Numbered from the stretch's first letter, positions 3,980 to 64,000 are shown. The stretch is 64,000 nt of DNA from an uncultured bacterium (GCA_903839725.1 CAIMDG010000002.1:135739-199738), one strand, 5' to 3'. Notes: generated by a model from the sequence alone, not told the origin. Program-made: numbers and translations.

Positions 3980-6898
3980 CTATTTCACACACATCTTCGT
4001 GGTCGCATTCAAGGTATATCCTGTAGCACATAAATATGTGGCGGTCGCAGGCGTTACTTTGACAGCAGTTGAGTAACATTTCTGACCCTTGAGCACATAT
4101 CCAGATGAGCATGAATATACGTACGAGAATAGTCCTGTTACTGATTTTGTATATGTAGAATTTGCAACAATACCTACAGTGTCAGTACTTTCACAATTCG
4201 TACCATTCAACGTTGACCCTGAAGGACAGGTATATGACGTAGTCGCTGCGACACTAACCTGAGTAGTTTGTGTGGTTGCGGGCGTCGTAACTGTTCCTTC
4301 GCTGGTAGGATTCTCGATACACATAGAGCCGGACAGTGTGAACCCTGCTACTGTACATGCGTATATTGGAGTTGCCGGGAGAACTTGTGGAGTACATGTA
4401 CTGCCGCCTCCCATAACAGGTGTAGGTGTACATGCAACACTGATCTGTGTACACGTTGTTCCTGAGAGTGAGTAGTTCGCAGATGGACAGGTGTAACGAA
4501 TAAGTGTCGCAGGAATTGAATTGACTGGTGTTGTTGTAGTAGAGACCGGAAGAATTTTTATGGTTGGTGCGTAGAAATGGAATACACATTTTGAACCGGG
4601 GACCAAAGTGTAATAACCATTGATACCAGCAGGAACAGTAGGACATGTATAGGTCAGAGTTGCAGCTATCGCCAACGAAGTTGCTGTAATACATACATTT
4701 CCAACTGAGACTTTGCCTGCAGCACAAATGACTACTGTTCTCGTACCTGTTCCACCGGTACCCATTGTTCCAATCGGAACACACTTATTACCTACGAGGT
4801 TATAGACGAATCCACCTGGTTTTGGAGCTGGACATGTATACGCCACAGTCGCTGCTACAGTCGCACCTTCTGAGTAGGCACCACTGCCGATAGTAGGATT
4901 GCCTGAAACAGTAACCCCACTTGAATTTATCGTGACCTTAAAACTCGTTGCCGCCCATTCACTGTTAAATGAACCAACAGCGACACTGTATACCCCGTTT
5001 GGCATACTGCTTGGGATGACAAATGTTATGGATGTACCAGCTGCACTATCACTAGATATATTTCCTATAACATATGTTTTACCTATGGAATTTGTAACCT
5101 GGCCATGTGTATATGGTATGAGATTCTTGAAGAATGACCAGACGGCTCCAAAGAAACTAGAAATCTTTTCCATGAAAGAGTGCGGTGTTGCCACGAGCGT
5201 AGATGGGTCTTGCGCTTCAGCAAGTGCGGTGACGGTAAATTGGATCGAATTATTAGTTGGTGTAAAGTTTGAGCCCATCATTCTAAAGGTATTTGGTACC
5301 GATGAATTATTTACTTTACTCAAATTACTTGCAACAGGTTTTGCGGTAACTGCCGGTATCCCTTCTTTTGTAGTGTCCATGGACATACATTCCGGCCAAT
5401 GAGTTTCGGCATGCGCCTTGTCTATAGGTTCACGCAATATTGCTGAAACAAGGTAACCACAAGAAACTACATTGAATCGAGCATCAACAATTCTCTTGAA
5501 AGTACCGTCAGAAAGTATTGTCGAACTTGCCATAGGCAATATATTCATCAAACTCTTTGAACTTGGTATGTACATCTCAAGGCCTGGATCTTGTGCCTTC
5601 TGATTACTTGACATGGTACCTTTGATAGTCGTTGAACCATATAGTAAATTATTTTTACTGCTTCTAAATTCATCAATTGGGTTCACGACACAATTTTCAT
5701 CATATTTTCCAGCGTTCTGACCATCATATACACCATGATAAACGTGACTACAATTATACTCATCCGTCACCCATCCAATTGAATGACCTGATTCATGAAC
5801 TGGAACAAGGTAATAATCTTCTTTCGATTCATAATGACCATTTACTATCTCACGTATAGAGAGGTTAGGTAGGTATGTATTCGAAGTATTTCTATTGTCA
5901 AAAGTAGATCCATTCAGATGACTTGTTTTTGAACCACTGTCTATTAACATAAATATACTTTCCTTATCATCCCCGTATGGTAAGAAAGTTGTACCTGCAA
6001 CATTCCCTTCGCAACTGAAACCAGAAACAGTGGTCGATGTTAAAGGTGGTGCATCAAAAGGAACTTTAATTTGTTGCGTGGTATAAACAAGCGGGTGCAA
6101 ATCAACATAGAACGAAAACTTTGATACGTATGACTTGTATGGATCAGTATTAATAAAGACACCTATAACCTTATCAACATAATCAAGGTAGTCTTTTATT
6201 GTAGGCAATGCCAAAGACAAACTAGGTCCACGCATAAATACAACCTTAATTGATCCCTTCCCTCCTAAATAAACACAATTAGATGCCTTTACGAAGGTTG
6301 ATGATGTGTGCACTATCTTTGGTTGACTTGTTGACGTTGCAGTAAAATTAACTGTGTAACCTCCATTTTTTGCAACTGTTTCTATCAAAGCATCTTCACG
6401 CTGATTTTGTATTGAAGTAGATAATCTACTACCATTTACACTATTATCTATCGACTCTAATCCCGAATAATCTCTACTATCACCGGACCTGCCAATTTTA
6501 GAAGGATGATCTCCGCCGGTGTTATCATTAAAATTAAAACTTCCATTCAATGTTGTAATACTACCCACTGATCCATTACTTCCCCAAGTTACGGGTGGCG
6601 AAATCGTATTATCTGCGGGGAAACAATCTTTGGTATTTGTTGGATATGTAAAATGAATATTCTGAAGAATTGATGGAGGATTTTGAACAGGAAGTGTTCC
6701 TAGCCCACCACTCAAAGATGGTCCAAAAGGGATCATGTTAGAATCTACCCATTGGTCCTGCATATAACCACTAGATGTGAGTGATTTTATTTGATAACTA
6801 TACGAACATGCTGCATGAGCAGATTTGATTCCAGGGAGAATAATAGAAGCTACAAGGAGGAGAACAAAAAACGCACTAGCTTTGTATATAATTCTCAT
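3980..6898 (-). CDS. Secreted HExxH zinc metallopeptidase (972 aa) with a C-terminal array of about 25 aa Cys-containing repeats
   Basis: Signal peptide MRIIYKASAFFVLLLVASIILPGIKSAHA. Motif VPVHESGHSIGWVTDEY (HExxHxxGxxxDEY). The C-terminus has at least 7 repeats of the type (A/T)YTCPxxxxGxxLxGxxC, for example AYTCPAPKPGGFVYNLVGNKCV, TYTCPTVPAGINGYYTLVPGSKCV and SYTCPSGSTLNGTNCE. Confidence 0.8.
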   Translation of the reverse strand: MRIIYKASAFFVLLLVASIILPGIKSAHAACSYSYQIKSLTSSGYMQDQWVDSNMIPFGPSLSGGLGTLPVQNPPSILQNIHFTYPTNTKDCFPADNTISPPVTWGSNGSVGSITTLNGSFNFNDNTGGDHPSKIGRSGDSRDYSGLESIDNSVNGSRLSTSIQNQREDALIETVAKNGGYTVNFTATSTSQPKIVHTSSTFVKASNCVYLGGKGSIKVVFMRGPSLSLALPTIKDYLDYVDKVIGVFINTDPYKSYVSKFSFYVDLHPLVYTTQQIKVPFDAPPLTSTTVSGFSCEGNVAGTTFLPYGDDKESIFMLIDSGSKTSHLNGSTFDNRNTSNTYLPNLSIREIVNGHYESKEDYYLVPVHESGHSIGWVTDEYNCSHVYHGVYDGQNAGKYDENCVVNPIDEFRSSKNNLLYGSTTIKGTMSSNQKAQDPGLEMYIPSSKSLMNILPMASSTILSDGTFKRIVDARFNVVSCGYLVSAILREPIDKAHAETHWPECMSMDTTKEGIPAVTAKPVASNLSKVNNSSVPNTFRMMGSNFTPTNNSIQFTVTALAEAQDPSTLVATPHSFMEKISSFFGAVWSFFKNLIPYTHGQVTNSIGKTYVIGNISSDSAAGTSITFVIPSSMPNGVYSVAVGSFNSEWAATSFKVTINSSGVTVSGNPTIGSGAYSEGATVAATVAYTCPAPKPGGFVYNLVGNKCVPIGTMGTGGTGTRTVVICAAGKVSVGNVCITATSLAIAATLTYTCPTVPAGINGYYTLVPGSKCVFHFYAPTIKILPVSTTTTPVNSIPATLIRYTCPSANYSLSGTTCTQISVACTPTPVMGGGSTCTPQVLPATPIYACTVAGFTLSGSMCIENPTSEGTVTTPATTQTTQVSVAATTSYTCPSGSTLNGTNCESTDTVGIVANSTYTKSVTGLFSYVYSCSSGYVLKGQKCYSTAVKVTPATATYLCATGYTLNATTKMCVK

Positions 6899-10767: not shown

Positions 10768-10791
10768 GAAATATATTGTAACATTATTCTG

Positions 10792-11180
10792 TGGAGATGC
10801 TGGGAATCGAACCCAGGTGCAATTGATATTCATCGAACGACTCTACAGCGATATCAGACCTTGTTCCACGAAGTGGATTTAATGATTGTGATCCAGAAAG
10901 TCTGAAAAACACACAATCACGATCTCATTCCGCCCGAAGACGGATTCAAGAACTGAAGTGAGAAGCTTCAATCCCCTACATCCAGATTATTACGCCAACA
11001 TCATAGTCAGGATCCCCATGAAGTAACGGCTGTCGTTAAACGAGAGCGAATGCGAAGTCCTTTTGACCAAAATATGGTGAAACGGTTGATTTTGCATTTA
11101 GAATTTCCATCAGATTTACGAGTTAATGGTGCTCGCGCTGCACGAACGAGAATGGTCAACTGTCGAAGCCGATCATCCCC
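10792..11180 (-). ncRNA. ssrA: tmRNA (SsrA), about 389 nt, CCA not encoded
   Basis: The 5' end GGGGATGATCGGCTTCGACAG matches the tmRNA consensus GGGGnUGAUnCnGGnUUCGAC. The 3' end is GCACCTGGGTTCGATTCCCAGCATCTCCA, with a T-arm and a 7 bp acceptor pairing with the 5' GGGGATG (one G-U). The gene lies directly beside smpB. A candidate tag reading frame starts at a GCA about 86 nt from the 5' end: GCAAAATCAACCGTTTCACCATATTTTGGTCAAAAGGACTTCGCATTCGCTCTCGTTTAA gives AKSTVSPYFGQKDFAFALV*. Confidence 0.8.
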
Positions 11181-11313: not shown

Positions 11314-11760
11314 TCAACGATCACTAAACTCCCTTCTCACCGTCCTATCAGTTTCGCGCTTTTTGATACTTTCGCGCTTGTCATGCTGCTTTTTACCACG
11401 CACAACAGCGACAGAGACCTTGAGAAGATTACCCTTATTATATATTGAAATTGGCACTATTGTCAACCCCTTACCTCCTTCAATATCAGCCAAACGCGCA
11501 ATTTCCTTCTTGCCGAGAATGAGTCGGCGATTCCTGCGAGGTTCATAGTCTTTCGGAGTATTATTCTCCTGATACGGAGGTACAAATGTATTTACCACAT
11601 AGGCCTCTCCCCCACGAACGATGACATATGAACCATCGAGTGAGCCCTGACCTTTCTTAATCGACTTTACTTCAAGACCAATCAGCTCAATACCAGCCTC
11701 GATTTTCTCGAGGATTTCGTAGTTGAAATGCGCCTTTTTGTAGTCGATCAATGTGGGCAT
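11314..11760 (-). CDS. smpB: SsrA-binding protein SmpB
   Basis: MPTLIDYKKAHFNYEILEKIEAGIELIGLEVKSIKKG... is the canonical SmpB N-terminus. The gene is adjacent to the tmRNA. Confidence 0.9.
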   Translation of the reverse strand: MPTLIDYKKAHFNYEILEKIEAGIELIGLEVKSIKKGQGSLDGSYVIVRGGEAYVVNTFVPPYQENNTPKDYEPRRNRRLILGKKEIARLADIEGGKGLTIVPISIYNKGNLLKVSVAVVRGKKQHDKRESIKKRETDRTVRREFSDR

Positions 11761-15852: not shown

Positions 15853-15893
15853 TGCTACATTATACGTGAAGAGGTGCAATAAGACCAAAGACA

Positions 15894-16017
15894 ATCACCC
15901 CAGACAACACGGCCCCCTGAAGACTCCGTTACGAACGAGTATAAATGCCTAAAGAATCACATAATGAAACGATATCCCGCTGGGAAGTCTTCAGGGGGCC
16001 GTGTTGTCTGGGGTGAT
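15894..16017. repeat. Long-palindrome element (full-core type): 32-33 bp perfect inverted-repeat arms around a conserved core
   Basis: Arms atcaccccagacaacacggccccctgaagact (15894-15925) and agtcttcagggggccgtgttgtctggggtgat. The core ccgttacgaacgagtataaatgcctaaagaatcacataatgaaacgatatcccgctggga is related to the cores at 56423, 58796, 61435 and 63810. Confidence 0.85.
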
Positions 16018-16038
16018 TGAAAACCGAACAGACAGAAA

Positions 16039-16162
16039 GGCAGAGAGGAATATGGGCGTGGTGGGAGACTGCCCGGAGGGATATCGTCTTTTCATTTTGT
16101 ACTTTAGGCACAACTCCTCGTACGTAACGACGTCTCCAACCACGCCCATATTCCTCTCCGCC
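16039..16162. repeat. Long-palindrome element (full-core type, opposite orientation), 31 bp arms with 2 mismatches
   Basis: Arms ggcagagaggaatatgggcgtggtgggagac and gtctccaaccacgcccatattcctctccgcc. The core cccggagggatatcgtcttttcattttgtactttaggcacaactcctcgtacgtaacg is the reverse complement of the family core. Confidence 0.8.
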
Positions 16163-16425
16163 TGAAAAATGTGGAAACAAAAAACACCTCAATGAGATGT
16201 GTTTTGTTGGTTGCAAGAGTAATGTACCTGGTAGTCCAGGTGGGTGATCTCACACAGAGCACCAAGGTGCCTGCGAATTTGATCTCCCTAAAAATGTGTT
16301 TTGTAGGATTTTACTCCTGCAGCCTGAATATATTATATGCCTCGAAAAAAAGGAGTACAAGAGCACAACATAGTTGCGACACTTTTCTTGATTTCGAGCA
16401 AAGTTGACAATGGAACGATATAGCG

Positions 16426-22590: not shown

Positions 22591-22640
22591 GGAATTAAAT
22601 TAGTTAAAAGTTTACAGTGAAAAATGAAAAGTTATTTTAC
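22591..22640 (-). promoter_or_regulatory. Conserved intercistronic leader motif copy A (between rpsE stop and rplO start)
   Basis: ggaattaaattagttaaaagtttacagtgaaaaatgaaaagttattttac is 34/35 identical over its core to 27363-27410 and related to 54009-54046. Confidence 0.7.
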
Positions 22641-27362: not shown

Positions 27363-27410
27363 GGTAGTAAGGTTAGTTTAAAGTTTACAGTGAAAAATGA
27401 AAAGTTATTT
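27363..27410 (-). promoter_or_regulatory. Conserved intercistronic leader motif copy B (between rpsC stop and rplP start)
   Basis: ggtagtaaggttagtttaaagtttacagtgaaaaatgaaaagttatttagc. The upstream gene's TAA stop lies inside the motif, as in copy A. Confidence 0.7.
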
Positions 27411-52697: not shown

Positions 52698-53094
52698 TTA
52701 AATCTCAAATTTTAGTAATCTTACTATTTTTCTTCATTGTAATTATACTCGCTCCCAATATATTTGATATCTCAACAGTCTCCTTAAGAATCGTTTCTGC
52801 TATGTCTTTTTGAAGCTTTCCTGTATCACGAGCCAATCCTATCCATAATTTAGACTCATTTGCAGACTTTAAACTATACGTGTAGAAATTGATGTAATCT
52901 TTTCTAGAACTTGCACCTTTAGCTTCAACAACATTCGCAACAACCGATGTTCCACTTCTTATCAACTGTCTTGCAATCACCTGACCTGAAATATCTTTAG
53001 AGAACTTATCGACGCATCTCACAATCTCAATGGCATACTTGTATAATCTTGCATCAATTTCCTTCTTCGTCATTTTTGAGATTTGAGATTTAAT
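52698..53094 (-). mobile_element. Putative mobile cassette: four-helix-bundle gene bounded by 14 bp perfect terminal inverted repeats
   Basis: attaaatctcaaat at 52698-52711 and its exact reverse complement atttgagatttaat at 53081-53094. The left repeat includes the gene's stop codon and the right repeat lies 8 nt upstream of its ATG. Extra partial tandem copies of tttgagattt occur at 53075-53091. The cassette interrupts the conserved rpsG-fusA junction. Confidence 0.55.
52705..53073 (-). CDS. Four-helix-bundle protein (TIGR02436-like; 23S rRNA intervening-sequence protein family)
   Basis: MTKKEIDARLYKYAIEIVRCVDKFSKDISGQVIARQLIRSGTSVVANVVEAKGASSRKDYINFYTYSLKSANESKLWI matches the four-helix-bundle family pattern (SxxANIAEG-like SGTSVVANVVEA, FxxFLxIAxGSxxE-like). 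Confidence 0.75.
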   Translation of the reverse strand: MTKKEIDARLYKYAIEIVRCVDKFSKDISGQVIARQLIRSGTSVVANVVEAKGASSRKDYINFYTYSLKSANESKLWIGLARDTGKLQKDIAETILKETVEISNILGASIITMKKNSKITKI

Positions 53095-54008: not shown

Positions 54009-54046
54009 GAATAAAATTAGTTTACAGTAAAAAATGAAAAGTGATT
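54009..54046 (-). promoter_or_regulatory. Conserved leader motif copy C (5' leader of rpsL)
   Basis: aataaaattagtttacagtaaaaaatgaaaagtgatta shares the core TTAGTTTACAGT(G/A)AAAAATGAAAAGT with copies A and B. Confidence 0.65.
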
Positions 54047-54261
54047 AGTTGGACGCACAGCAGCGCGCATACAACTTTGCACTTTACACTTCTAACTTTT
54101 AACTGTTATGTGGCAGTCCTGAATTATTCACCGCTTTGGGTTTGAGATATACCCTGACGATTACTCATTCTTGCCGTAATAATGTACTGGTCCAAAGTTT
54201 CCTTTAGATAGTGGAGATACCATATCATATAGATAGAGGATGTACAAGATATGAGAGTACG

Positions 54262-55397: not shown

Positions 55398-56351
55398 TTA
55401 TTGAATAGAAATAGTTTTTCCATCAGAAATTATTTTAACAGTCCCCTTTTCTTGAATATTGAATCTATTTTCAATAAGTATAGTTGCCAGAGGATCTTCC
55501 AACTTTTTTGTTGTAGCAGTTACCGCAGTCTTGTGTGTCTGATTCCCTCTCTGTGGCAGAATTTTTTTGTTTGAACTGGAAGAATCTGATTTTGATACAG
55601 CTTTTGAAAAAACAAAGTACTGTGGTCGCACAGCATCAATACATTGAGCAGACATATTAGACGTGGAACCGTTATTCGAAACAACGAGTACATCTGAATG
55701 GTTCAATGCCCCCTTAGTGACAAGGTATTTTTGAATCTTTGTTGATACACCACCTACTAACGATATTGTCGTGGATCCAAAAGATATATTCATTACCAAT
55801 TCTGGAGCACTTGCTTTGGAATATTGAAAATCAGTCGTTTGCGCAGGAAATATTACATTTCCACTCACGTGAGCATCAAAATCAATATGGTCGCCGGCAC
55901 CAACTTCTTGAATATCAACTTTCAAGTCATTCAGAGTTTCGATAAAAGTTTCATAGATATGATCTGTTGAACTTGCAATACCCTCACCGTCTAGTGTAAT
56001 TCGAGGAATATATGCGCGGCCAATGCGATACCGTTTGAGAACATCAATAAGACCTGAGACGTCTTTGCCTTCAGTATGAGTAGCAATCAGTGCATCTATG
56101 CGGCGTGAATAAAAAGGCAAAATCTTGGTCAACTCAGTAACAACTTCAGAATTTGCTCCACCATCAATCAGTATCCGTATATCTTCTGGTGTACGTATAA
56201 ATAAAGATCGTCCACTTTTCAAAGCGAATATGTACACTTCAAGAATATGTGGGCGATGATTCTCTTTCCATGCATATGCACCTACACCAGAAAGAGCGAG
56301 TGTTGCCGCAGCTCCAATAATGAAAGGTTTCGCTAATATGTATTTGTTCAT
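55398..56351 (-). CDS. Secreted or membrane-anchored metallo-beta-lactamase-like protein resembling the ComEC C-terminal nuclease domain (degenerate HxHxDH)
   Basis: The ATG at 56351 gives the signal/anchor MNKYILAKPFIIGAAATLALSGVGAYA. Has a ...ILIDGGANSEV...IATHTEGKDVSGLIDVL region. The ORF-track extension MFHWTSVVCRSS derives from the palindrome arm and is discounted. Confidence 0.55.
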   Translation of the reverse strand: MNKYILAKPFIIGAAATLALSGVGAYAWKENHRPHILEVYIFALKSGRSLFIRTPEDIRILIDGGANSEVVTELTKILPFYSRRIDALIATHTEGKDVSGLIDVLKRYRIGRAYIPRITLDGEGIASSTDHIYETFIETLNDLKVDIQEVGAGDHIDFDAHVSGNVIFPAQTTDFQYSKASAPELVMNISFGSTTISLVGGVSTKIQKYLVTKGALNHSDVLVVSNNGSTSNMSAQCIDAVRPQYFVFSKAVSKSDSSSSNKKILPQRGNQTHKTAVTATTKKLEDPLATILIENRFNIQEKGTVKIISDGKTISIQ

Positions 56352-56374
56352 ATACAGAAGCGTACATGAGTGAA

Positions 56375-56417
56375 ATGAAGATTCTGTGAAAAAGGAATCA
56401 ATTCCTGATGAAGATTT
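56375..56417 (-). promoter_or_regulatory. Direct repeats ATGAAGATTCT ... ATGAAGATTTT (32 nt apart), 23 nt upstream of the metallo-beta-lactamase-like gene start
   Basis: The same pair (atgaagattct N22 atgaagatttt with gaatcaa between) occurs at 58744-58787 upstream of comEC. Confidence 0.6.
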
Positions 56418-56422
56418 TATAA

Positions 56423-56556
56423 GTGAAGACCGGCACACAACACTAGTCCAATGAAACATCCGTTATGTTCTAATGTAAGTGCCTGAAGTACACTATTGAA
56501 AAAAGATATCCCGCTGGGAATTGTTTCATCGGACTAGTGTGATATGCCGGTCTTAC
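56423..56556. repeat. Long-palindrome element (full-core type) between divergent genes (metallo-beta-lactamase-like protein and sodA); 35 bp arms with 5 mismatches
   Basis: Arms gtgaagaccggcacacaacactagtccaatgaaaca and tgtttcatcggactagtgtgatatgccggtcttac. Core aacatccgttatgttctaatgtaagtgcctgaagtacactattgaaaaaagatatcccgctgggaat. Confidence 0.85.
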
Positions 56557-56629
56557 AAATACTTACAACCCCAACAAAATTCAACGAAATATCATATAAT
56601 GAACAGACCTTATAAACTAACAAACTACT

Positions 56630-57229
56630 ATGAAATCATTCACTGCAAAAACATTCACCATTCCCGCACTCAAAGGTATTTCAGCAAAAACTATCGAAGA
56701 GCACCTCAAGCTATATAACGGCTATGTAAATAACGCGAACGCCATTGTTGAAAAGATGCATGAATATAAAAAAGATCGCGAAACACATGCATACGCGCTC
56801 AGTGAATTACGTCGCCGTCTCAGTTTTGAATACAATGGCATACGCAACCATGAAGTGTATTTTTCTGCACTTGAAGGTGGACCAAAAGCATTCAACTACG
56901 ATGGCTCACTCAAAAAAGCTATTGAAGAAGATTGTGGACCAATCGAAGAATTCCTCATGGGGTTCAAAGCGATGGCAGCAAGCACACGTGGTATCGGCTG
57001 GGCTGCTCTCTGGTATGACCCACGAGACAATCGCCTTCTTGCATCATGGATCGATGAACAGCATATTGGTGAACTTAATGGATGCACGATGATTCTCGGA
57101 ATCGATATGTGGGAACACTCATATGTTGCTGACTATCAACCTTCAGGCAAGAAACAATACGTTGAAGATTTCTTCGCAAACCTCAACTGGGAGGTTATAG
57201 AAAATAATTTCGCACAAGCTTCAAAATAA
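56630..57229 (+). CDS. sodA: Fe/Mn superoxide dismutase
   Basis: ...EEHLKLYNGYVNNAN... FEYNGIRNHEVYF ... GIDMWEHSYVADYQ are canonical SOD metal-ligand regions. Confidence 0.85.
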   Translation: MKSFTAKTFTIPALKGISAKTIEEHLKLYNGYVNNANAIVEKMHEYKKDRETHAYALSELRRRLSFEYNGIRNHEVYFSALEGGPKAFNYDGSLKKAIEEDCGPIEEFLMGFKAMAASTRGIGWAALWYDPRDNRLLASWIDEQHIGELNGCTMILGIDMWEHSYVADYQPSGKKQYVEDFFANLNWEVIENNFAQASK

Positions 57230-57253
57230 CGTGTGCTTCTAGTACGAAATAAT

Positions 57254-57281
57254 AAAAAAGAGTAGGTACCTACTCTTTTTT
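57254..57281. terminator. Bidirectional terminator between sodA (+) and comEC (-)
   Basis: aaaaaagagtaggtacctactctttttt, a perfect 9 bp palindrome with A/T runs. Confidence 0.75.
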
Positions 57282-58721
57282 GTATCGCTTGATACACACG
57301 TATACAACTGTAAATAACACATAAAAACAAACAACCCACCATCCAGAAAATGCGGGTACGTGTGCAGATGCAAAAGGTACTCGAGCAAAATTTCTGACCA
57401 TCAATAATTCATATGAAAGTAATAGGTGTGAAACCCATCCAAACAAATGTGCTAATGGCATCCAAATGAAACCACTCGCTCCGGTTAGAAAAACGAATAG
57501 CATTGTCACGGGAATAAAAGGAAGCACGAGAATATTCACGACCATTCCAATAATAGAAATTTGCCCCATCATATAAAGAATGTATGGTGAAACAAATATT
57601 TGTGTGGCAATGGTAGAGGCAACGATACCGCGCATACCAAACTTTTCTGGAATAAATCCAAGCTTACCTTCAATAGGAGATGCCAGAAGAATAAGCCCGA
57701 GTGTTGCTAAAAATGAAAGTTGGAATGAAGGGTCGTGCAATAAGATCATCGGGTTTTGTATGAGCATGAGAAGAGCTGCAAAGATGAGTGCACGCGAAAC
57801 ATTGTATTCACGACGAATCAAATCAGCGGATAATGCAACACTCGCCATGAAGCACGAACGAACAACGGTTGCTCCACCACCAACGAGTACACCAAATAAG
57901 GCAATGCCAATACCTCCTACACTGATACCCCACACCCGTGGCAAGAATGAAAGAATACGCCGAAGAGCATCGCCAACCACCGTAATATTATATCCAGATA
58001 AAACCACAATATGGATCAAACCAACTGTACGAAAATCATCAAGTAAATCTTTTCCCAGTGCCGCTTTTTCACCAACAACCAAACCTGATGCAAGTGCAGC
58101 ATGCGGTTCCCCGAGAGCTTGTTCGAGATTTGATACAAACCCCTTTTTGAGGGTAAACAGCACCGATGAGACAGTATCAGAAATACCTTGAATAGAAAAC
58201 ACCGTGAAAGCTCTCTGTGAAGAGCTTTCACGGCTGTCTTTATATACAACTGTATCAATTTCTACCTCAGCACTCTTCATTTCATAAAACACACCATCCT
58301 TCGCAAGATACCCTTTATAATCAAATGAACGCCCTCCTCCACTCGAGAAATTAAATGGTTTGTTTATTTTTCCCACAAATGAAACGTGTTCTCCAAATGA
58401 AAATTGTGGATACAATTTTGTTTTTACACGAATCGATACATTACCTCCACATGCGACCATATTGTTTTGCTCAGCAAGCATAGAACTGCGCGCAGATGGT
58501 TTTGTTGATGAACTATTCACTATAAATATGCTCTCAGCATCAACCACAAATACCTGACCAGAATCTTTGCGCTCTGGTTCACCAGTAACAATTCCAAAAC
58601 CTTGTACTTCATGCTTCAAACACGCGGAAATAGGAGGTGCGTTATATTGCAACGAAGTGAATACACGAAATAATGCAGCACCAATAAACAAAGACCAAAA
58701 TATATAGACTCCTTTACTCAT
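57270..58721 (-). CDS. comEC: ComEC/Rec2-like DNA-uptake channel protein lacking the C-terminal metallo-beta-lactamase domain
   Basis: 483 aa. An N-terminal TM helix and OB-like region, then a polytopic competence domain (…GLIHIVVLSGYNITVV…). It ends in a TM helix with no beta-lactamase-like domain. Confidence 0.65.
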   Translation of the reverse strand: MSKGVYIFWSLFIGAALFRVFTSLQYNAPPISACLKHEVQGFGIVTGEPERKDSGQVFVVDAESIFIVNSSSTKPSARSSMLAEQNNMVACGGNVSIRVKTKLYPQFSFGEHVSFVGKINKPFNFSSGGGRSFDYKGYLAKDGVFYEMKSAEVEIDTVVYKDSRESSSQRAFTVFSIQGISDTVSSVLFTLKKGFVSNLEQALGEPHAALASGLVVGEKAALGKDLLDDFRTVGLIHIVVLSGYNITVVGDALRRILSFLPRVWGISVGGIGIALFGVLVGGGATVVRSCFMASVALSADLIRREYNVSRALIFAALLMLIQNPMILLHDPSFQLSFLATLGLILLASPIEGKLGFIPEKFGMRGIVASTIATQIFVSPYILYMMGQISIIGMVVNILVLPFIPVTMLFVFLTGASGFIWMPLAHLFGWVSHLLLSYELLMVRNFARVPFASAHVPAFSGWWVVCFYVLFTVVYVCIKRYKKE

Positions 58722-58743
58722 AGGAGCAGTTTAATACTGTGCG

Positions 58744-58787
58744 ATGAAGATTCTATGAAATTTGAATCAAAATAGAATGAAGATTTT
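58744..58787 (-). promoter_or_regulatory. Direct repeats ATGAAGATTCT ... ATGAAGATTTT upstream of comEC
   Basis: See 56375-56417. This is a conserved roughly 45 nt block shared by the two promoter regions. Confidence 0.6.
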
Positions 58788-58795
58788 AGATGCGC

Positions 58796-58930
58796 CCCAA
58801 GCAGCCGCACACATAGTATCCTGCCAAAACATCCGTAACGTTCTAATATAAGGGCCTAAAGTACAATATTAAAAGACGATATCCCGCTGGGAATTGTTTC
58901 GTCAGGATACTATGTGTGCGGCTGCTTGGG
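58796..58930. repeat. Long-palindrome element (full-core type); 28 bp perfect arms
   Basis: Arms cccaagcagccgcacacatagtatcctg and caggatactatgtgtgcggctgcttggg. Core ccaaaacatccgtaacgttctaatataagggcctaaagtacaatattaaaagacgatatcccgctgggaattgtttcgt. Confidence 0.9.
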
Positions 58931-58937
58931 TAACCAA

Positions 58938-59669
58938 TTATAGAAGTTGTTCAAACTCTTCAATCACTTTTTGTTCATCTACGATATCGAGAGATTTCTT
59001 GTATCGAGCACCCTTTACACCTTTGACGCGCTTCTCACATTCAGCCCAACTATGATCAACGTGAATAGCACCACCAACAGAACTGATATATGAAAATGCT
59101 TTTGCGTTTGAACGAGATGAACTCGACTTTTTTGTTTTCATGGCAACACTATCGTGTGAAACATCGAGAATATTCGGAAGATCATAGCGAGACAATGGAC
59201 CAGAATAAAGTTTCGTCGCACCATTATCGGCGAAATCCGTAGCAATGTGATCACAACGCTCATTTCCAATAATACCAACGTGTCCACCAACATATTCCCA
59301 TTTCACAGAACGATCTTTGACTGCAGCATCTAGTTTCATCCAAAGATCTTTATTGACCACATCATCTTTTGTTTTTGTGATCCAACCATTATTTTTCCAA
59401 CCTTTGATCCATAAAGTAATTCCATTGATCAGATACTTTGAGTCTGTAAACACAGTAATACCTGAATGTTTTGGTGTATGCAAAATTCCCTCAGTAGCCG
59501 CCATAAGTTCCATTCTATTGTTTGTTGTGTGCTTCTCTGCACTACCAAGTTCGGTCACCGTATCGCTCGTAACGACGACACTACCCCAACCACCTGGACC
59601 AGGATTTCCACGAGACGAACCATCAGTAAAAATTGTTATTGAATTCATAGGATGATTATACCACTTCAA
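58938..59669 (-). CDS. rnhA: Ribonuclease HI with a C-terminal extension
   Basis: ITIFTDGSSRGNPGPGGWG...TNNRMELMAA...VFTDSKYLING...GHVGIIGNERCD are RNase H1 catalytic-residue contexts (D, E, D, D). Overlaps the recJ 3' end by 14 nt. Confidence 0.8.
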   Translation of the reverse strand: MKWYNHPMNSITIFTDGSSRGNPGPGGWGSVVVTSDTVTELGSAEKHTTNNRMELMAATEGILHTPKHSGITVFTDSKYLINGITLWIKGWKNNGWITKTKDDVVNKDLWMKLDAAVKDRSVKWEYVGGHVGIIGNERCDHIATDFADNGATKLYSGPLSRYDLPNILDVSHDSVAMKTKKSSSSRSNAKAFSYISSVGGAIHVDHSWAECEKRVKGVKGARYKKSLDIVDEQKVIEEFEQLL

Positions 59670-61413
59670 TTACTCTCAGCCTCAATTCTGGTCTTCCTCG
59701 AAACATAGACTTTTCAACTGAAGCAATTAAATTTATTTTTGTATTCGCTTTGAGATTCTTGGCCCATTCAGTAGGAGCGGCAAAAAATGCAATTGCAGGA
59801 ATCTTTGCTCCACTTTTTTTCTTAAATATAATCTCCACGTGATTATTTGTTTTACCAAATATACGTACCGAATCAGCGACAATATTCTTGAACAAAAATA
59901 CTGGTCGAGGATTGCCGACACCAAATGGGGCTAGTTTCGAAATATCATCAAACAAACTCCACATCACGTCCTCAATTGATAATTCTTTATCAATAATAAT
60001 CTGACCGATTTCTTCAGCTTCTTTAACATTTTCTGCATTTGTTTGATTTAAGATTTGAGATTTTATATTTGAGATTTTCTTCGCACTTTCATTCAGGCGA
60101 CTATCTAGAAAGTGAATAGCATCATTCCCAACAGCAAACCCTCCTGAATGATGATGTCCTCCAAATTGTAAGAATGTTCCTTCAAGAGCTCCTTTCATAA
60201 TCTCAACAACATTCGAAGTACCTTCAGAACGACATGATCCTTTGATCACATCTCCACCATCTCGTCCCCAAAGGAATACCGGACGCTTAAATTCTTCAGC
60301 ACATGAATTTGCAGCGAGACCAAGGAGGGATGGTCGCCATTCGGGATTACCGAGGACGATCGCGTGAGGGATGACGTCACCGTGACGTTCATGCACTTTC
60401 TTTTTCACATCTTTAACAAGAGCAGCAACCATACCTTTTCGCTCATTATTTATTTCATCGAGATGGTCAGCAAAAAACTTCGCATCTTCTTCTGTTTGTG
60501 CAGAGAGCAGCTTGAACGCATCCATAGGAACCCCCATACGAGATGCGGCATTGATGCGTGGAGAAATCATAAAACCAATATCATCTTCGGTAATATATTT
60601 CTGTGGAATCTTTAATTTTGCCAGTAATCGCACCAAACCAAGACGCTGACTTTTTCGTAATACATTCAAGCCGTATTGTGCGAGCACTCTATTCTCGCCA
60701 ATGAGAGGTACCATATCTGAGAGTGTTGCCATGCCAACGAGATCAAGGAGCCATTTCTCCATCCCCTCTTTGAGACCGAAGCGTTCGATCTTCAGAATTG
60801 CTTGAATGAGTTTGAAAGCTACACCAGATCCGCAGAGAAATTTGTCTGGGTACATACAATCAACCTGTTTATGATCAACAATCGCATATGCAGGAGGTAC
60901 GTGTGCAGGAGCTTCATGGTGATCAGTTATGATAACTTCAAGGCCTTTTGAGTTGGCGTGCGCGACGGGTACTACATCTGAAATACCACAATCAACCGTT
61001 ACTATCAGTTTCACACCTTGTGAAACGAGTTCATTAACCGCTTCAACATTCAAACCAAAGCCTTCATCGTGGCGGTGTGGAATGTAAATAATAAAGTTCT
61101 TGAATGAAATGCGGACAAAAAAATCATTCCATATTACAGCACCAGGAATACCATCAGCGTCATAGTCTGCATATATAGCAATCTTCTCATCACTCTTGAT
61201 TGCTTGAATGATACGGCGTGCGGCCTTCTCTGCATCTTTTAATAGAAATGGATCATGTATGTCTCGATCATAGCTCGGGGTCAAAAATGTGTCAGCGGAA
61301 ACAGCATCAGTTATTCCGCGATGAAATAATAAATGTGAAACAAGGTCAGAACTGAGACCGAGTGCATTTTTTTCTTCAACAGATAATGGTTTTCGTACTG
61401 AATATGCAGGCAT
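59656..61413 (-). CDS. recJ: Single-stranded-DNA-specific exonuclease RecJ (DHH/DHHA1)
   Basis: ...IYADYDADGIPGA..., ...ITDHHE... (DHH motif), and a C-terminal OB-like region. The start is taken at the internal ATG 61413, because the longer ORF-track N-terminus is encoded by the palindrome element. Confidence 0.85.
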   Translation of the reverse strand: MPAYSVRKPLSVEEKNALGLSSDLVSHLLFHRGITDAVSADTFLTPSYDRDIHDPFLLKDAEKAARRIIQAIKSDEKIAIYADYDADGIPGAVIWNDFFVRISFKNFIIYIPHRHDEGFGLNVEAVNELVSQGVKLIVTVDCGISDVVPVAHANSKGLEVIITDHHEAPAHVPPAYAIVDHKQVDCMYPDKFLCGSGVAFKLIQAILKIERFGLKEGMEKWLLDLVGMATLSDMVPLIGENRVLAQYGLNVLRKSQRLGLVRLLAKLKIPQKYITEDDIGFMISPRINAASRMGVPMDAFKLLSAQTEEDAKFFADHLDEINNERKGMVAALVKDVKKKVHERHGDVIPHAIVLGNPEWRPSLLGLAANSCAEEFKRPVFLWGRDGGDVIKGSCRSEGTSNVVEIMKGALEGTFLQFGGHHHSGGFAVGNDAIHFLDSRLNESAKKISNIKSQILNQTNAENVKEAEEIGQIIIDKELSIEDVMWSLFDDISKLAPFGVGNPRPVFLFKNIVADSVRIFGKTNNHVEIIFKKKSGAKIPAIAFFAAPTEWAKNLKANTKINLIASVEKSMFRGRPELRLRVIEVV

Positions 61414-61434
61414 CGTTGAAGTATACCAGATGAA

Positions 61435-61561
61435 AAAGAAGTTCCCACAACAAGCCTGACGAAACAATTCCCAGCGGGATATCGTCTCATTACTTAATAC
61501 TTCAGGCACTAATAAGAGGACGTCACAGATGTTTCGTCAGGCTTGTTGTGGGAACTTCTTG
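61435..61561. repeat. Long-palindrome element (full-core type, reverse orientation) between divergent recJ and the DnaA-domain-IV-like gene; 32 bp perfect arms
   Basis: Arms aagaagttcccacaacaagcctgacgaaaca and tgtttcgtcaggcttgttgtgggaacttctt. Core attcccagcgggatatcgtctcattacttaatacttcaggcactaataagaggacgtcacaga. Confidence 0.9.
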
Positions 61562-61631
61562 AAGATTACTAGATTTGACACAATCTATTTACAATGGTAT
61601 TTTCAAATAAACACTTTTACAAAGGATTTAT

Positions 61632-63786: not shown

Positions 63787-63809
63787 GATGGATATTATAG
63801 CAGAAGGAC

Positions 63810-63936
63810 AGGTAACCTACATATCACAGCCTGACGAAACATCCGTAACGTTCTAATATAAGTGCCTAAAGTACAATATTAAAAGACGATATCCCGCTGG
63901 GAATTGTTTCGTCAGGCTGTGATATGTAGGTTACCT
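63810..63936. repeat. Long-palindrome element (full-core type) 24 nt upstream of the pgk start; 32 bp perfect arms
   Basis: Arms aggtaacctacatatcacagcctgacgaaaca and tgtttcgtcaggctgtgatatgtaggttacct. Core tccgtaacgttctaatataagtgcctaaagtacaatattaaaagacgatatcccgctgggaat. Confidence 0.9.
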
Positions 63937-64000
63937 ATTTGAGATTACAACACGACAACATCAACCGCTTTCAACAATTCTTTGAAACCAGGAATATTGA

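Follow-up and report, generated by a model that had tools for sequence, protein, structure and literature searches.

The window analysed in this study is a DNA stretch of 64,000 nucleotides from an uncultured bacterium of the ultra-small Patescibacteria (GCA_903839725.1, CAIMDG010000002.1:135739-199738), and the locus described here occupies positions 55,398 to 58,787 of it. The locus contained a gene for the DNA-uptake channel protein ComEC (comEC, 57270..58721, minus strand, 483 amino acids, aa) and a gene for a stand-alone, membrane-anchored protein of 317 aa with a ComEC-type beta-lactamase fold and a degenerate active site (mbl, 55398..56351, minus strand). The gene sodA (56630..57229, plus strand; Pfam Sod_Fe_N and Sod_Fe_C) was present between them. 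Each of the two genes was preceded by an array of four phased direct repeats. An earlier note on this DNA had read the two genes as the halves of a split ComEC; in our study, the reading that we regard as likely is a two-gene, two-subunit ComEC, in which each half is under its own copy of one promoter type.

Channel subunit

The 483-aa open reading frame (ORF) of comEC was found to contain DUF4131 (PF13567; residues 9–154, E=1e-12), which represents the N-terminal oligonucleotide/oligosaccharide-binding (OB) fold, followed by the transmembrane (TM) channel domain Competence (PF03772; residues 214–479, E=5.7e-49). No Lactamase_B was found in this ORF in the Pfam search, which agrees with the earlier claim that the usual C-terminal nuclease domain is absent. 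The stop was situated 4 residues past the Competence domain, and the C-terminal KRYKKE would lie in the cytoplasm. The closest 120 homologues of comEC contained DUF4131 and Competence only, without Lactamase_B (120/120). The ORF matched positions 97–406 of the NCBIfam profile TIGR00361 (ComEC_Rec2) and covered residues 218–443 of the solved ComEC chain 30bt_A (E=5e-10, phmmer with the single sequence). Homology and gene context suggest a role of this comEC in DNA uptake across the cytoplasmic membrane. In a cultivated saccharibacterium, which belongs to a different lineage of the candidate phyla radiation (CPR), transformation needs comEC (PMC10633639).

Beta-lactamase-fold subunit

The 317-aa protein begins with MNKYIL and matched the C-terminal positions 441–632 of TIGR00361 (E=3e-7). 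The bit scores against this profile were 73 for the comEC ORF and 29 for the 317-aa ORF, and both fall short of the cut-off of 190. The beta-lactamase-like domain, which is the third domain of ComEC, was not fused with the other two on one polypeptide and was encoded by 55398–56351 instead. A Pfam search of the 317-aa protein gave nothing below E=0.01; Lactamase_B and Lactamase_B_2 did not recognise it at E<=10, and the sole match was MBL_MAP1B (0.09). The profile of the metallo-beta-lactamase-like (MBL) family matched the ComEC structures 30bt_A (residues 531–746, E=2.5e-14) and 9ic4 (E=6e-13), followed by the choline esterase Pce at E~0.1. The AlphaFold2 (AF2) model of the protein, with a predicted local distance difference test score (pLDDT) of 84.5, contained one N-terminal helix (residues 4–31) and a beta-lactamase sandwich. 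A Foldseek search of the PDB with this model found 9ic4 at the top (E=1e-18, template-modelling score 0.77, normalised to the target length), and the next match was at 1e-10. The predicted fold is an alpha-beta/beta-alpha sandwich that is nearest to the ComEC domain. No better non-ComEC family was found, and the assignment of the gene to the ComEC C-terminal type was confirmed.

The N-terminal helix (56259..56342, minus strand) was modelled as a single long helix and is the predicted TM anchor of the subunit. The single-sequence alignment of the ORF covered residues 517–747 of 30bt_A and started within its own TM helix, so that residues 18–31 paired, from 517 onwards, with the terminal part of the TM helix located before the beta-lactamase-like domain in 30bt_A. 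As judged from this alignment, the N-terminal helix of mbl corresponds by homology to the helix through which fused ComEC places its nuclease domain outside. The two ORFs are complementary, non-overlapping pieces of ComEC, since the channel ORF covers 218–443 and mbl covers 517–747 of 30bt_A, and the alignments place the break point between two TM helices, in a cytoplasmic loop. The protein had been described as secreted and signal-anchored; the anchor was retained in our analysis and the secretion was not, as the AxA-like site of the N-terminus was not conserved across the family, from which we infer an uncleaved anchor. A longer start that would give 353 aa (56459) was rejected because it would cross the promoter and the palindrome element described below, and because all homologues begin with MNK or MS. 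In the automatic annotation of the Joint Genome Institute, some of the stand-alone homologues of mbl were labelled 'competence protein ComEC'.

Active site of the second subunit

In the ComEC enzyme of M. glycerini, manganese is coordinated by H598, D600, D602, H603, and D700, with D602 as the general base, and H725 and S728 touch the DNA (PMC12455585). The substitutions H598A, D602A, H603A, and D700A abolished the nuclease activity and D600A lowered it ~5-fold; mutations that lowered the activity in vitro abolished transformation, and in L. pneumophila ComEC, loop 2 (NxYGHP) is essential (PMC12455585).

In the window protein, the degenerate motif II ATHTEGKD noticed earlier was seen at residues 90–97 (56061..56084, minus strand), where it replaces (S/L)THxDxDH. 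In the alignment to 30bt_A, the equivalents of H598, D600, D602, and H603 were H92, E94, K96, and D97, respectively. The mbl clade contained N, D/E, K (nearly invariant), and N/D at these four positions, with the consensus N-T-D/E-G-K-N. Almost all aligned homologues had N or D at the H92 position, and H was otherwise found only in the 86%-identical relative P0002. The histidine of motif III (H667 equivalent) was substituted by an invariant Phe in the window clade, the D700 position (motif IV) was variable, and motif V contained H, N, or S, with 0 invariant His in the clade. The window protein was thus found to lack the metal-binding set of HxDxDH, motif III His, motif IV Asp, and motif V His. 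At the place of loop 2, the protein contained a Ser/Lys-rich insert (residues 256–281; 55509..55586, minus strand) that is predicted to be disordered (pLDDT <50). In the window clade, the alignment columns that contain NxYGHP in the intact stand-alone homologues were filled with S/K sequence of low complexity. The clade contained strongly conserved mbl motifs of its own, namely RTPxDxRILIDGG, ILPFYSRRID, FxYSKASAPE, and KxQK, which argue for selection for some other role. On sequence grounds, the 317-aa protein is probably no longer a nuclease and would be a pseudo-nuclease subunit. The split 'nuclease' of the earlier note is therefore doubtful, since the metal ligands and the NxYGHP loop were lost in the clade.

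Distribution and age of the split

A total of 383 homologues of mbl were found, all of them stand-alone and about 300–340 aa long, and those with a named source were from Patescibacteria, Paceibacterota, or Parcubacteria. In a library clustered at 50% identity, 160 mbl clusters had E<=1e-30, and the best 150 were all <=396 aa. The gene order pgk-HIT-recJ-rnhA-comEC-(sodA)-mbl-rpmB-M50-rpsL was kept in eight relatives, down to 43% identity. The earlier question of whether the split is common in related genomes was answered in the affirmative by this synteny and by the number of stand-alone homologues.

The conserved upstream neighbours of comEC were rnhA (58938–59669; Pfam RNase_H) and recJ (59656–61413; Pfam DHH and RecJ_OB), which together occupy 58938..61413 on the minus strand. 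The gene tables and Pfam agreed with the earlier placement of recJ-rnhA upstream and of sodA between the halves. The order recJ-rnhA-comEC was kept in the relatives' loci L002 and L004–L007 and in the P0004 and P0005 contigs; L009 contained two genes between recJ and rnhA, with rnhA and comEC still adjacent. Conserved synteny is the basis on which recJ-rnhA may be given any role here. The region between the two halves varied. The P0004 relative contained no sodA there, and comEC and mbl were directly adjacent with a 92-nt gap; L006 contained extra genes alongside sodA.

Distant stand-alone members of the mbl family were found to keep all canonical motifs (FDVGQGDA, LTHPHADHxxGL, GDA, KVxHHGS, and NxYGHP), and one such intact-motif cluster was from candidate division WWE3. 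The WWE3 locus L131 (3788–6915) contained a comEA-comEC-mbl operon, in which a 495-aa DUF4131 and Competence ORF overlaps a 304-aa TM-anchored Lactamase_B ORF by 14 nt. The same adjacency of comEC and an intact-motif mbl was present in L130. As the split occurs in WWE3 and L130 with intact motifs, it is older than the loss of the catalytic residues, and the overlapping operon of L131 is likely the ancestral state of the split in the window. The split is ancient in the CPR. With high confidence, we regard the division of ComEC into two genes as lineage-wide across Paceibacteria/Parcubacteria and older than the genome of the window. Previous work reported CPR ComEC without the metallo-beta-lactamase fusion (Meheust et al. 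2019; PMC6744442); a separate neighbouring gene for the missing domain is not reported in that paper, and full-text searches found no paper stating it.

Repeat array and putative promoter

The blocks upstream of mbl (56370–56419) and comEC (58739–58788) were found to be 76% identical over 50 nt, and the block ended 23 nt and 22 nt before the ATG, respectively. The sharing of one block by both genes, described in the earlier note, was confirmed. Four 11-nt phased direct repeats, AAAATCTTCAT TCTATTTTGAT TCAAATTTCAT AGAATCTTCAT, were present upstream of comEC (58744..58787, minus strand), and the array upstream of mbl contained AAAATCTTCAT CAGGAATTGAT TCCTTTTTCAC AGAATCTTCAT (56375..56418, minus strand). 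A candidate -10 box followed 10 nt past each array, with TAAACT 6 nt before the ATG of comEC (58728..58733, minus strand) and TACGCT 7 nt before the ATG of mbl (56359..56364, minus strand). The repeat unit had the consensus ..YTTSAY.

Thirteen sites in 7 genomes or contigs were registered on the start codon, namely those of comEC and mbl in the window, L007, L004, L009, L005, and L006, plus that of L126. In all thirteen, four (sometimes five) 11-nt units ending with TT[C/G]A[T/C] were followed by exactly 10 nt, TAnnnT, and 5–9 nt before the start codon. Direct repeats with ~11-bp phasing over the -35 position and with a fixed distance to the -10 box were thus found at 13 sites. An alternative in which TTGATTC would be the -35 box and TCATNN the -10 box was rejected, as TAnnnT at 10 nt after the last repeat fits 13/13 sites. 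Four TTSAY-N6 units with <=1 mismatch were found at 2 places in 64 kb (comEC and mbl only), against 0.01 expected by chance. A weight matrix of eight sites found no further array in the window or in the relatives' loci, and Tandem Repeats Finder did not detect the 11-nt array because its units are too degenerate.

In L007, L004, and L009, the comEC array was kept at the orthologous position; in L005 and L006 it had diverged. In relatives with protein identities as low as about 45%, comEC and mbl both retained the block, and its distance from the start codon was fixed. In L005, the comEC and mbl copies agreed at 40/43 positions (shuffled queries gave at most 26). Orthologous copies of the array were 87–91% alike, whereas the two copies of the window were 74% alike, which argues for conservation and not for recent copying.

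Shine-Dalgarno-like motifs were almost absent before the 71 gene starts of the whole window, and TAnnnT showed a peak 6 nt before the ATG (9/71 genes, e.g., recJ, pgk, and HIT). Leaderless promoters therefore seem to be a general trait here, with the repeat array as the feature that is specific. At comEC and mbl, the -10 box was present 5–9 nt before the start without a Shine-Dalgarno motif, and transcription would start at the ATG of each gene to give a leaderless mRNA. A terminator-like hairpin, AAAAAAGAGTAGGTACCTACTCTTTTTT, was found between the convergent stops of comEC and sodA (57254..57281; minus-strand call in the terminator scan). Its A/T-run flanks suggest that it could work in both directions. 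The hairpin fits with comEC and mbl as separate transcription units. Co-regulation of the two genes through the shared array, as had been proposed, was the best reading of the conserved block, and we consider it likely.

Other sequences before start codons were also seen in the window. A 38-nt block, AAATAACTTTTCATTTTTCACTGTAAACTTTTAACTAA, was present at 22600–22637, 27373–27410, and 54010–54047 (minus strand), directly before three ribosomal-protein genes including rpsL. It contains TAAACT and seems to represent a second family of promoters or leaders specific to this lineage. Many ribosomal-protein genes contained ACTAC(C/T) right before the ATG.

Array copies at other genes

Within the 64 kb, the block was limited to comEC and mbl; in relatives it was not. 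Genome contigs were scanned for TTCAYN6TTGATTCN3TTTCAY, and the matches listed were mostly chance matches in unrelated phyla. Among them, three loci of one metagenome-assembled genome (AlinenLipids_bin-8985) were informative. In L025, the array was present directly before the operon of the pilus ATPase T2SSE and the platform protein T2SSF, in the order 10 nt, TAAGGT, 6 nt, and ATG. L108 contained the array about 130 nt upstream of rpsF-ssb. In L118, the array was situated between the gene of an OmpR-family response regulator (RR) and its histidine kinase (HK) gene, and an array between RR and HK was also found in a second species (L132). The scan of metagenomes for the block gave 5 matches. 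They included L126 (metagenome contig Ga0194062_1023143, from the metagenome of the 86% relative), where a third copy of the array was found before a Y1_Tnp gene. L077 and L107 were rejected as chance matches within coding sequence, and L125 and L129 as chance matches of the metagenome scan.

Two of these loci contained further features. A leader of ~200 nt, situated 3' of the RR-HK array promoter (L118 860–1078; L132 10770–10964), was highly conserved between the two species and begins with the hairpin GTTACTnGTCGAAGTAAC. The leader could act as a regulatory RNA, or it could contain a small ORF ahead of the histidine kinase. In L126 (791–1545), an IS200-like Y1 transposase gene was inserted between two type IV pilin genes, and it was flanked and internally interrupted by hairpins resembling repetitive extragenic palindromes (REP-like), GGTCGAGG-N5-CCTCGACC. 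REP-like hairpins of this type were absent from the window.

Palindrome element

A palindrome element was found next to each array, at 58796..58930, where it separates rnhA from the comEC array (63-nt conserved core with arms of 36 bp), and at 56423..56556 between the mbl array and sodA. Both copies are adjacent to the promoter unit and are not part of it. The window contained at least six copies, at 15886–16028 (+), 16028–16170 (-), 56423–56556 (+), 58796–58930 (+), 61426–61568 (-), and 63803–63945 (+). The 63-nt core (..GTGCCTAAAG..GATATCCCGCTGGGAAT) was found inside inverted arms of 30–36 bp, which are locus-specific, and 26 of the 39 predicted stem pairs of the arms showed compensatory changes. 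In L007 and L004, the element was present at orthologous intergenic sites (before pgk, recJ, comEC, and mbl/sodA), and L004 lacked it upstream of comEC with the array block intact. A palindrome beyond each block had been taken to mark the two genes together; its presence was confirmed, and the co-marking was not, given the number of copies in the window and its absence at comEC of L004. In orthologous copies, the arms were conserved and the core was inverted between related genomes, as in the comEC copy of L007. At pgk and recJ, ~10 nt separate the end of the outer arm from the -10 box, and one core contained a sigma-70-like TTAATA-16-TATATT directed at comEC. Rfam gave no family for the element, with gathering thresholds and in E-value mode, where only generic microRNA-hairpin models appeared, far below threshold. 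The element could be an invertible promoter cassette, an insulator or terminator, or a structured RNA.

A different, perfect palindrome with a 15-bp stem, GCCGTGAAAGCTCTT-CACA-GAGAGCTTTCACGG, was found at 58201–58234 in the coding region of comEC, where the linker that joins the OB fold to the channel domain is encoded (..DSRESSSQRAFTVF..). Its length far exceeds what chance would produce in 64 kb, and its peptide was conserved in the 86% relative.

Other features of the window

Two large paralogous secreted or surface proteins were encoded on the minus strand at 1–1837 and 3980–6898, with the common N-termini MRIIYK.S...LLLVA.IILPGIKSAHAACSYSYQ. Several stretches of 150–200 nt showed 76–85% DNA identity between them, which marks a tandem duplication that has diverged. 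A 23S_rRNA_IVP gene, coding for a four-helix bundle, was present at 52705–53073 (minus strand) between rpsG and fusA of the str operon. This insertion was also found in L001 and L003, which are contigs with an MBL protein identical to that of the window, and was absent in several relatives. A transfer-messenger RNA gene (tmRNA, Rfam RF00023, 99 bits) was found at 10789–11180 (minus strand), adjoining smpB (11314–11760).

Proposed two-subunit ComEC and rival explanations

In the proposed mechanism, the channel subunit of 483 aa would supply the OB fold and the competence channel, and the 317-aa subunit would supply the last TM helix and the extracytoplasmic beta-lactamase-like domain of canonical ComEC. 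The two proteins would assemble into one machine, in which the 317-aa subunit most likely serves, without catalysis, as a lid on the channel with a structural or DNA-guiding task. Each half has its own copy of the promoter, as sodA and the terminator now separate comEC and mbl. Each promoter would consist of four 11-bp-phased repeats at the place of the -35 box, 10 bp, TAnnnT, 6–7 nt, and the ATG, giving a leaderless mRNA. The promoter geometry and the arrays before the pilus ATPase/platform operon, before rpsF-ssb, and before the HK gene beside the OmpR-family regulator led us to propose a DNA-uptake regulon under a two-component system. An OmpR-type system might turn on this regulon and might keep the two ComEC halves stoichiometric. 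That the array is under an OmpR-family two-component system and defines a DNA-uptake regulon is a tentative proposal, which we hold to be possible and less likely than the two-subunit reading itself. Equally speculative is the wider picture, in which the array would be a Paceibacteria 'competence box' of an autoregulated OmpR-family system. Its leaderless regulon would comprise the two ComEC subunits, the pilus ATPase/platform, the single-stranded DNA-binding protein, and a domesticated Y1 transposase. In this picture, the ComEC nuclease domain would have been released as its own gene across the CPR and, in this clade, turned into the non-catalytic DNA-guiding subunit encoded by mbl.

Several observations weigh against this account. 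The sigma-70 consensus scan found no promoter at either block, as there is no -35 box, and the -10 boxes are weak, being TAnnnT only. All array sites beyond comEC and mbl come from the DNA of relatives; those before the Y1 transposase and ~130 nt before rpsF are not obviously related to competence, and the regulator was named solely because the array sits in the RR-HK locus. The phased T-rich repeats may act through DNA curvature instead of a protein, and the loss of the canonical ligands leaves room for a different catalytic chemistry in the 317-aa protein.

The curvature argument leads to the rival explanation that survives best, although we consider it unlikely. Here the block would not be the site of a regulator; phased T-tracts would make it an intrinsically curved element upstream, or it would be left over from a duplication or gene conversion that travelled with mobile palindromic DNA. 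The T-rich repeats at helical phasing fit such an element, and both blocks of the window abut the palindrome, but the block persists without the palindrome at L004 comEC and in L009, and its conserved positions are the non-T ones (SAY). Mobility is suggested by the L126 block, which has REP-like hairpins on its flanks and a Y1 transposase as its neighbour, and recent copying is suggested by the L005 copies, which are 93% identical. However, the orthologous copies of close relatives are 87–91% alike whereas the paralogous ones are 74% alike, exactly 10 nt lie between the repeats and the -10 box in all 13 cases, and the genes preceded by the array form a functionally coherent set. A conserved, putative regulator site in front of both ComEC halves remains the preferred reading of the block.

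It is also improbable that the 317-aa subunit is still a strand-degrading nuclease with a non-canonical active site. The window protein keeps H92 and E94, and many family members contain H at the H725 position and often D or N at the D700 position; the fold is predicted to be intact, and the clade has strongly conserved new polar motifs. However, H92 is replaced by N or D in nearly all homologues, D602 by a near-invariant Lys, H603 by N or D, and H667 by an invariant Phe, and no histidine is invariant. A single Ala at H598, D602, H603, or D700 is enough to abolish the activity of the M. glycerini enzyme (PMC12455585). These losses favour the pseudo-nuclease subunit.

Even less probable is that the 317-aa protein is an independent enzyme or binding protein of the envelope, such as a Pce/CbpE-like esterase, that comes from an ancestor with a beta-lactamase fold and does not work with ComEC. 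Pce and CbpE are its next structural neighbours and no Pfam family recognises it, but the profile match favours ComEC over Pce by about 13 orders of magnitude, and the TM helix of the protein also aligns to ComEC. The catalytic and loop-2 residues required for ComEC function are gone; yet mbl was found beside comEC or one gene from it in the relatives examined (with extra genes next to sodA in L006), the overlapping ORFs of WWE3 show the origin of mbl by splitting, and mbl carries the promoter array of comEC. A partner of the channel is therefore the favoured reading of the 317-aa protein. An origin of the two ORFs from an error of assembly or annotation, or from a once-fused comEC that is decaying into a pseudogene, has nothing in its favour beyond the short length of comEC, and it has already been refuted by the same arrangement on independent contigs from many samples, by a complete sodA on the other strand between the halves, and by the strong conservation of both halves in hundreds of genomes.

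Comparison with known systems

Compared with canonical ComEC/Rec2 (B. subtilis type; 9IC4 is M. glycerini's beta-lactamase-like domain, and 30bt/9vc6 are full-length structures), the window contains the same three modules in the same order. However, the modules are on two polypeptides in separate transcription units, the equivalents of H603, D602, and H667 and the NxYGHP loop 2 are lost, and Lactamase_B is blind to the second half. [quoted passage not shown] These two are precedents for uptake without a competent ComEC nuclease domain. The inactive domain is fused in S. pneumoniae and absent in H. pylori, whereas the window retains it in a conserved gene of its own; an EndA-like partner was not found there. 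The split ComEC of WWE3 (L131 and L130) has the same break point as that of the window. The WWE3 subunit retains HxHxDH, GD, HHGS, and NxYGHP, and Pfam Lactamase_B detects it, whereas it does not detect that of the window; the WWE3 halves overlap in one operon, whereas those of the window are separated.

These comparisons change the view that CPR ComEC simply lacks the nuclease domain (PMC6744442), as a distinct gene was found here to encode the domain in membrane-anchored form. The WWE3 version is intact and the Paceibacteria version catalytically degenerate, which raises the questions of what degrades the second strand and what the non-catalytic role is. As the domain is naturally separated from the channel, it can be studied apart from it.

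Promoters of the PhoB/CiaR type have direct repeats with 11-bp phasing in place of a -35 box, and 10 bp separate the last repeat from the -10 box. Examples are the pho box of E. coli and the CiaR repeat TTTAAG-N5-TTTAAG of S. pneumoniae, which is situated 10 bp upstream of the -10 box. The array of the window shares the phasing and the -10 distance with OmpR/PhoB-activated promoters, and an OmpR-family gene is found beside one copy of the array. It differs from them in having four repeats instead of two, a lineage-specific YTTSAY unit, and a leaderless appearance, and is a candidate binding site. Patescibacteria, which account for a large part of the diversity of bacteria, cannot make nucleotides. 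The single lineage of Patescibacteria that has been tested was found to be naturally competent (PMC10633639). The array provides a concrete cis-element with a candidate regulator, which could help the genetic tractability of these organisms. If the proposal is true, a competence regulon would have been defined for the first time in uncultivated Patescibacteria, together with a first means of inducing their DNA uptake. In comparison with the systems described so far, the locus is a new form of a known system and not a new type of system, namely a two-subunit ComEC with a putative pseudo-nuclease subunit and a candidate competence promoter and regulator.

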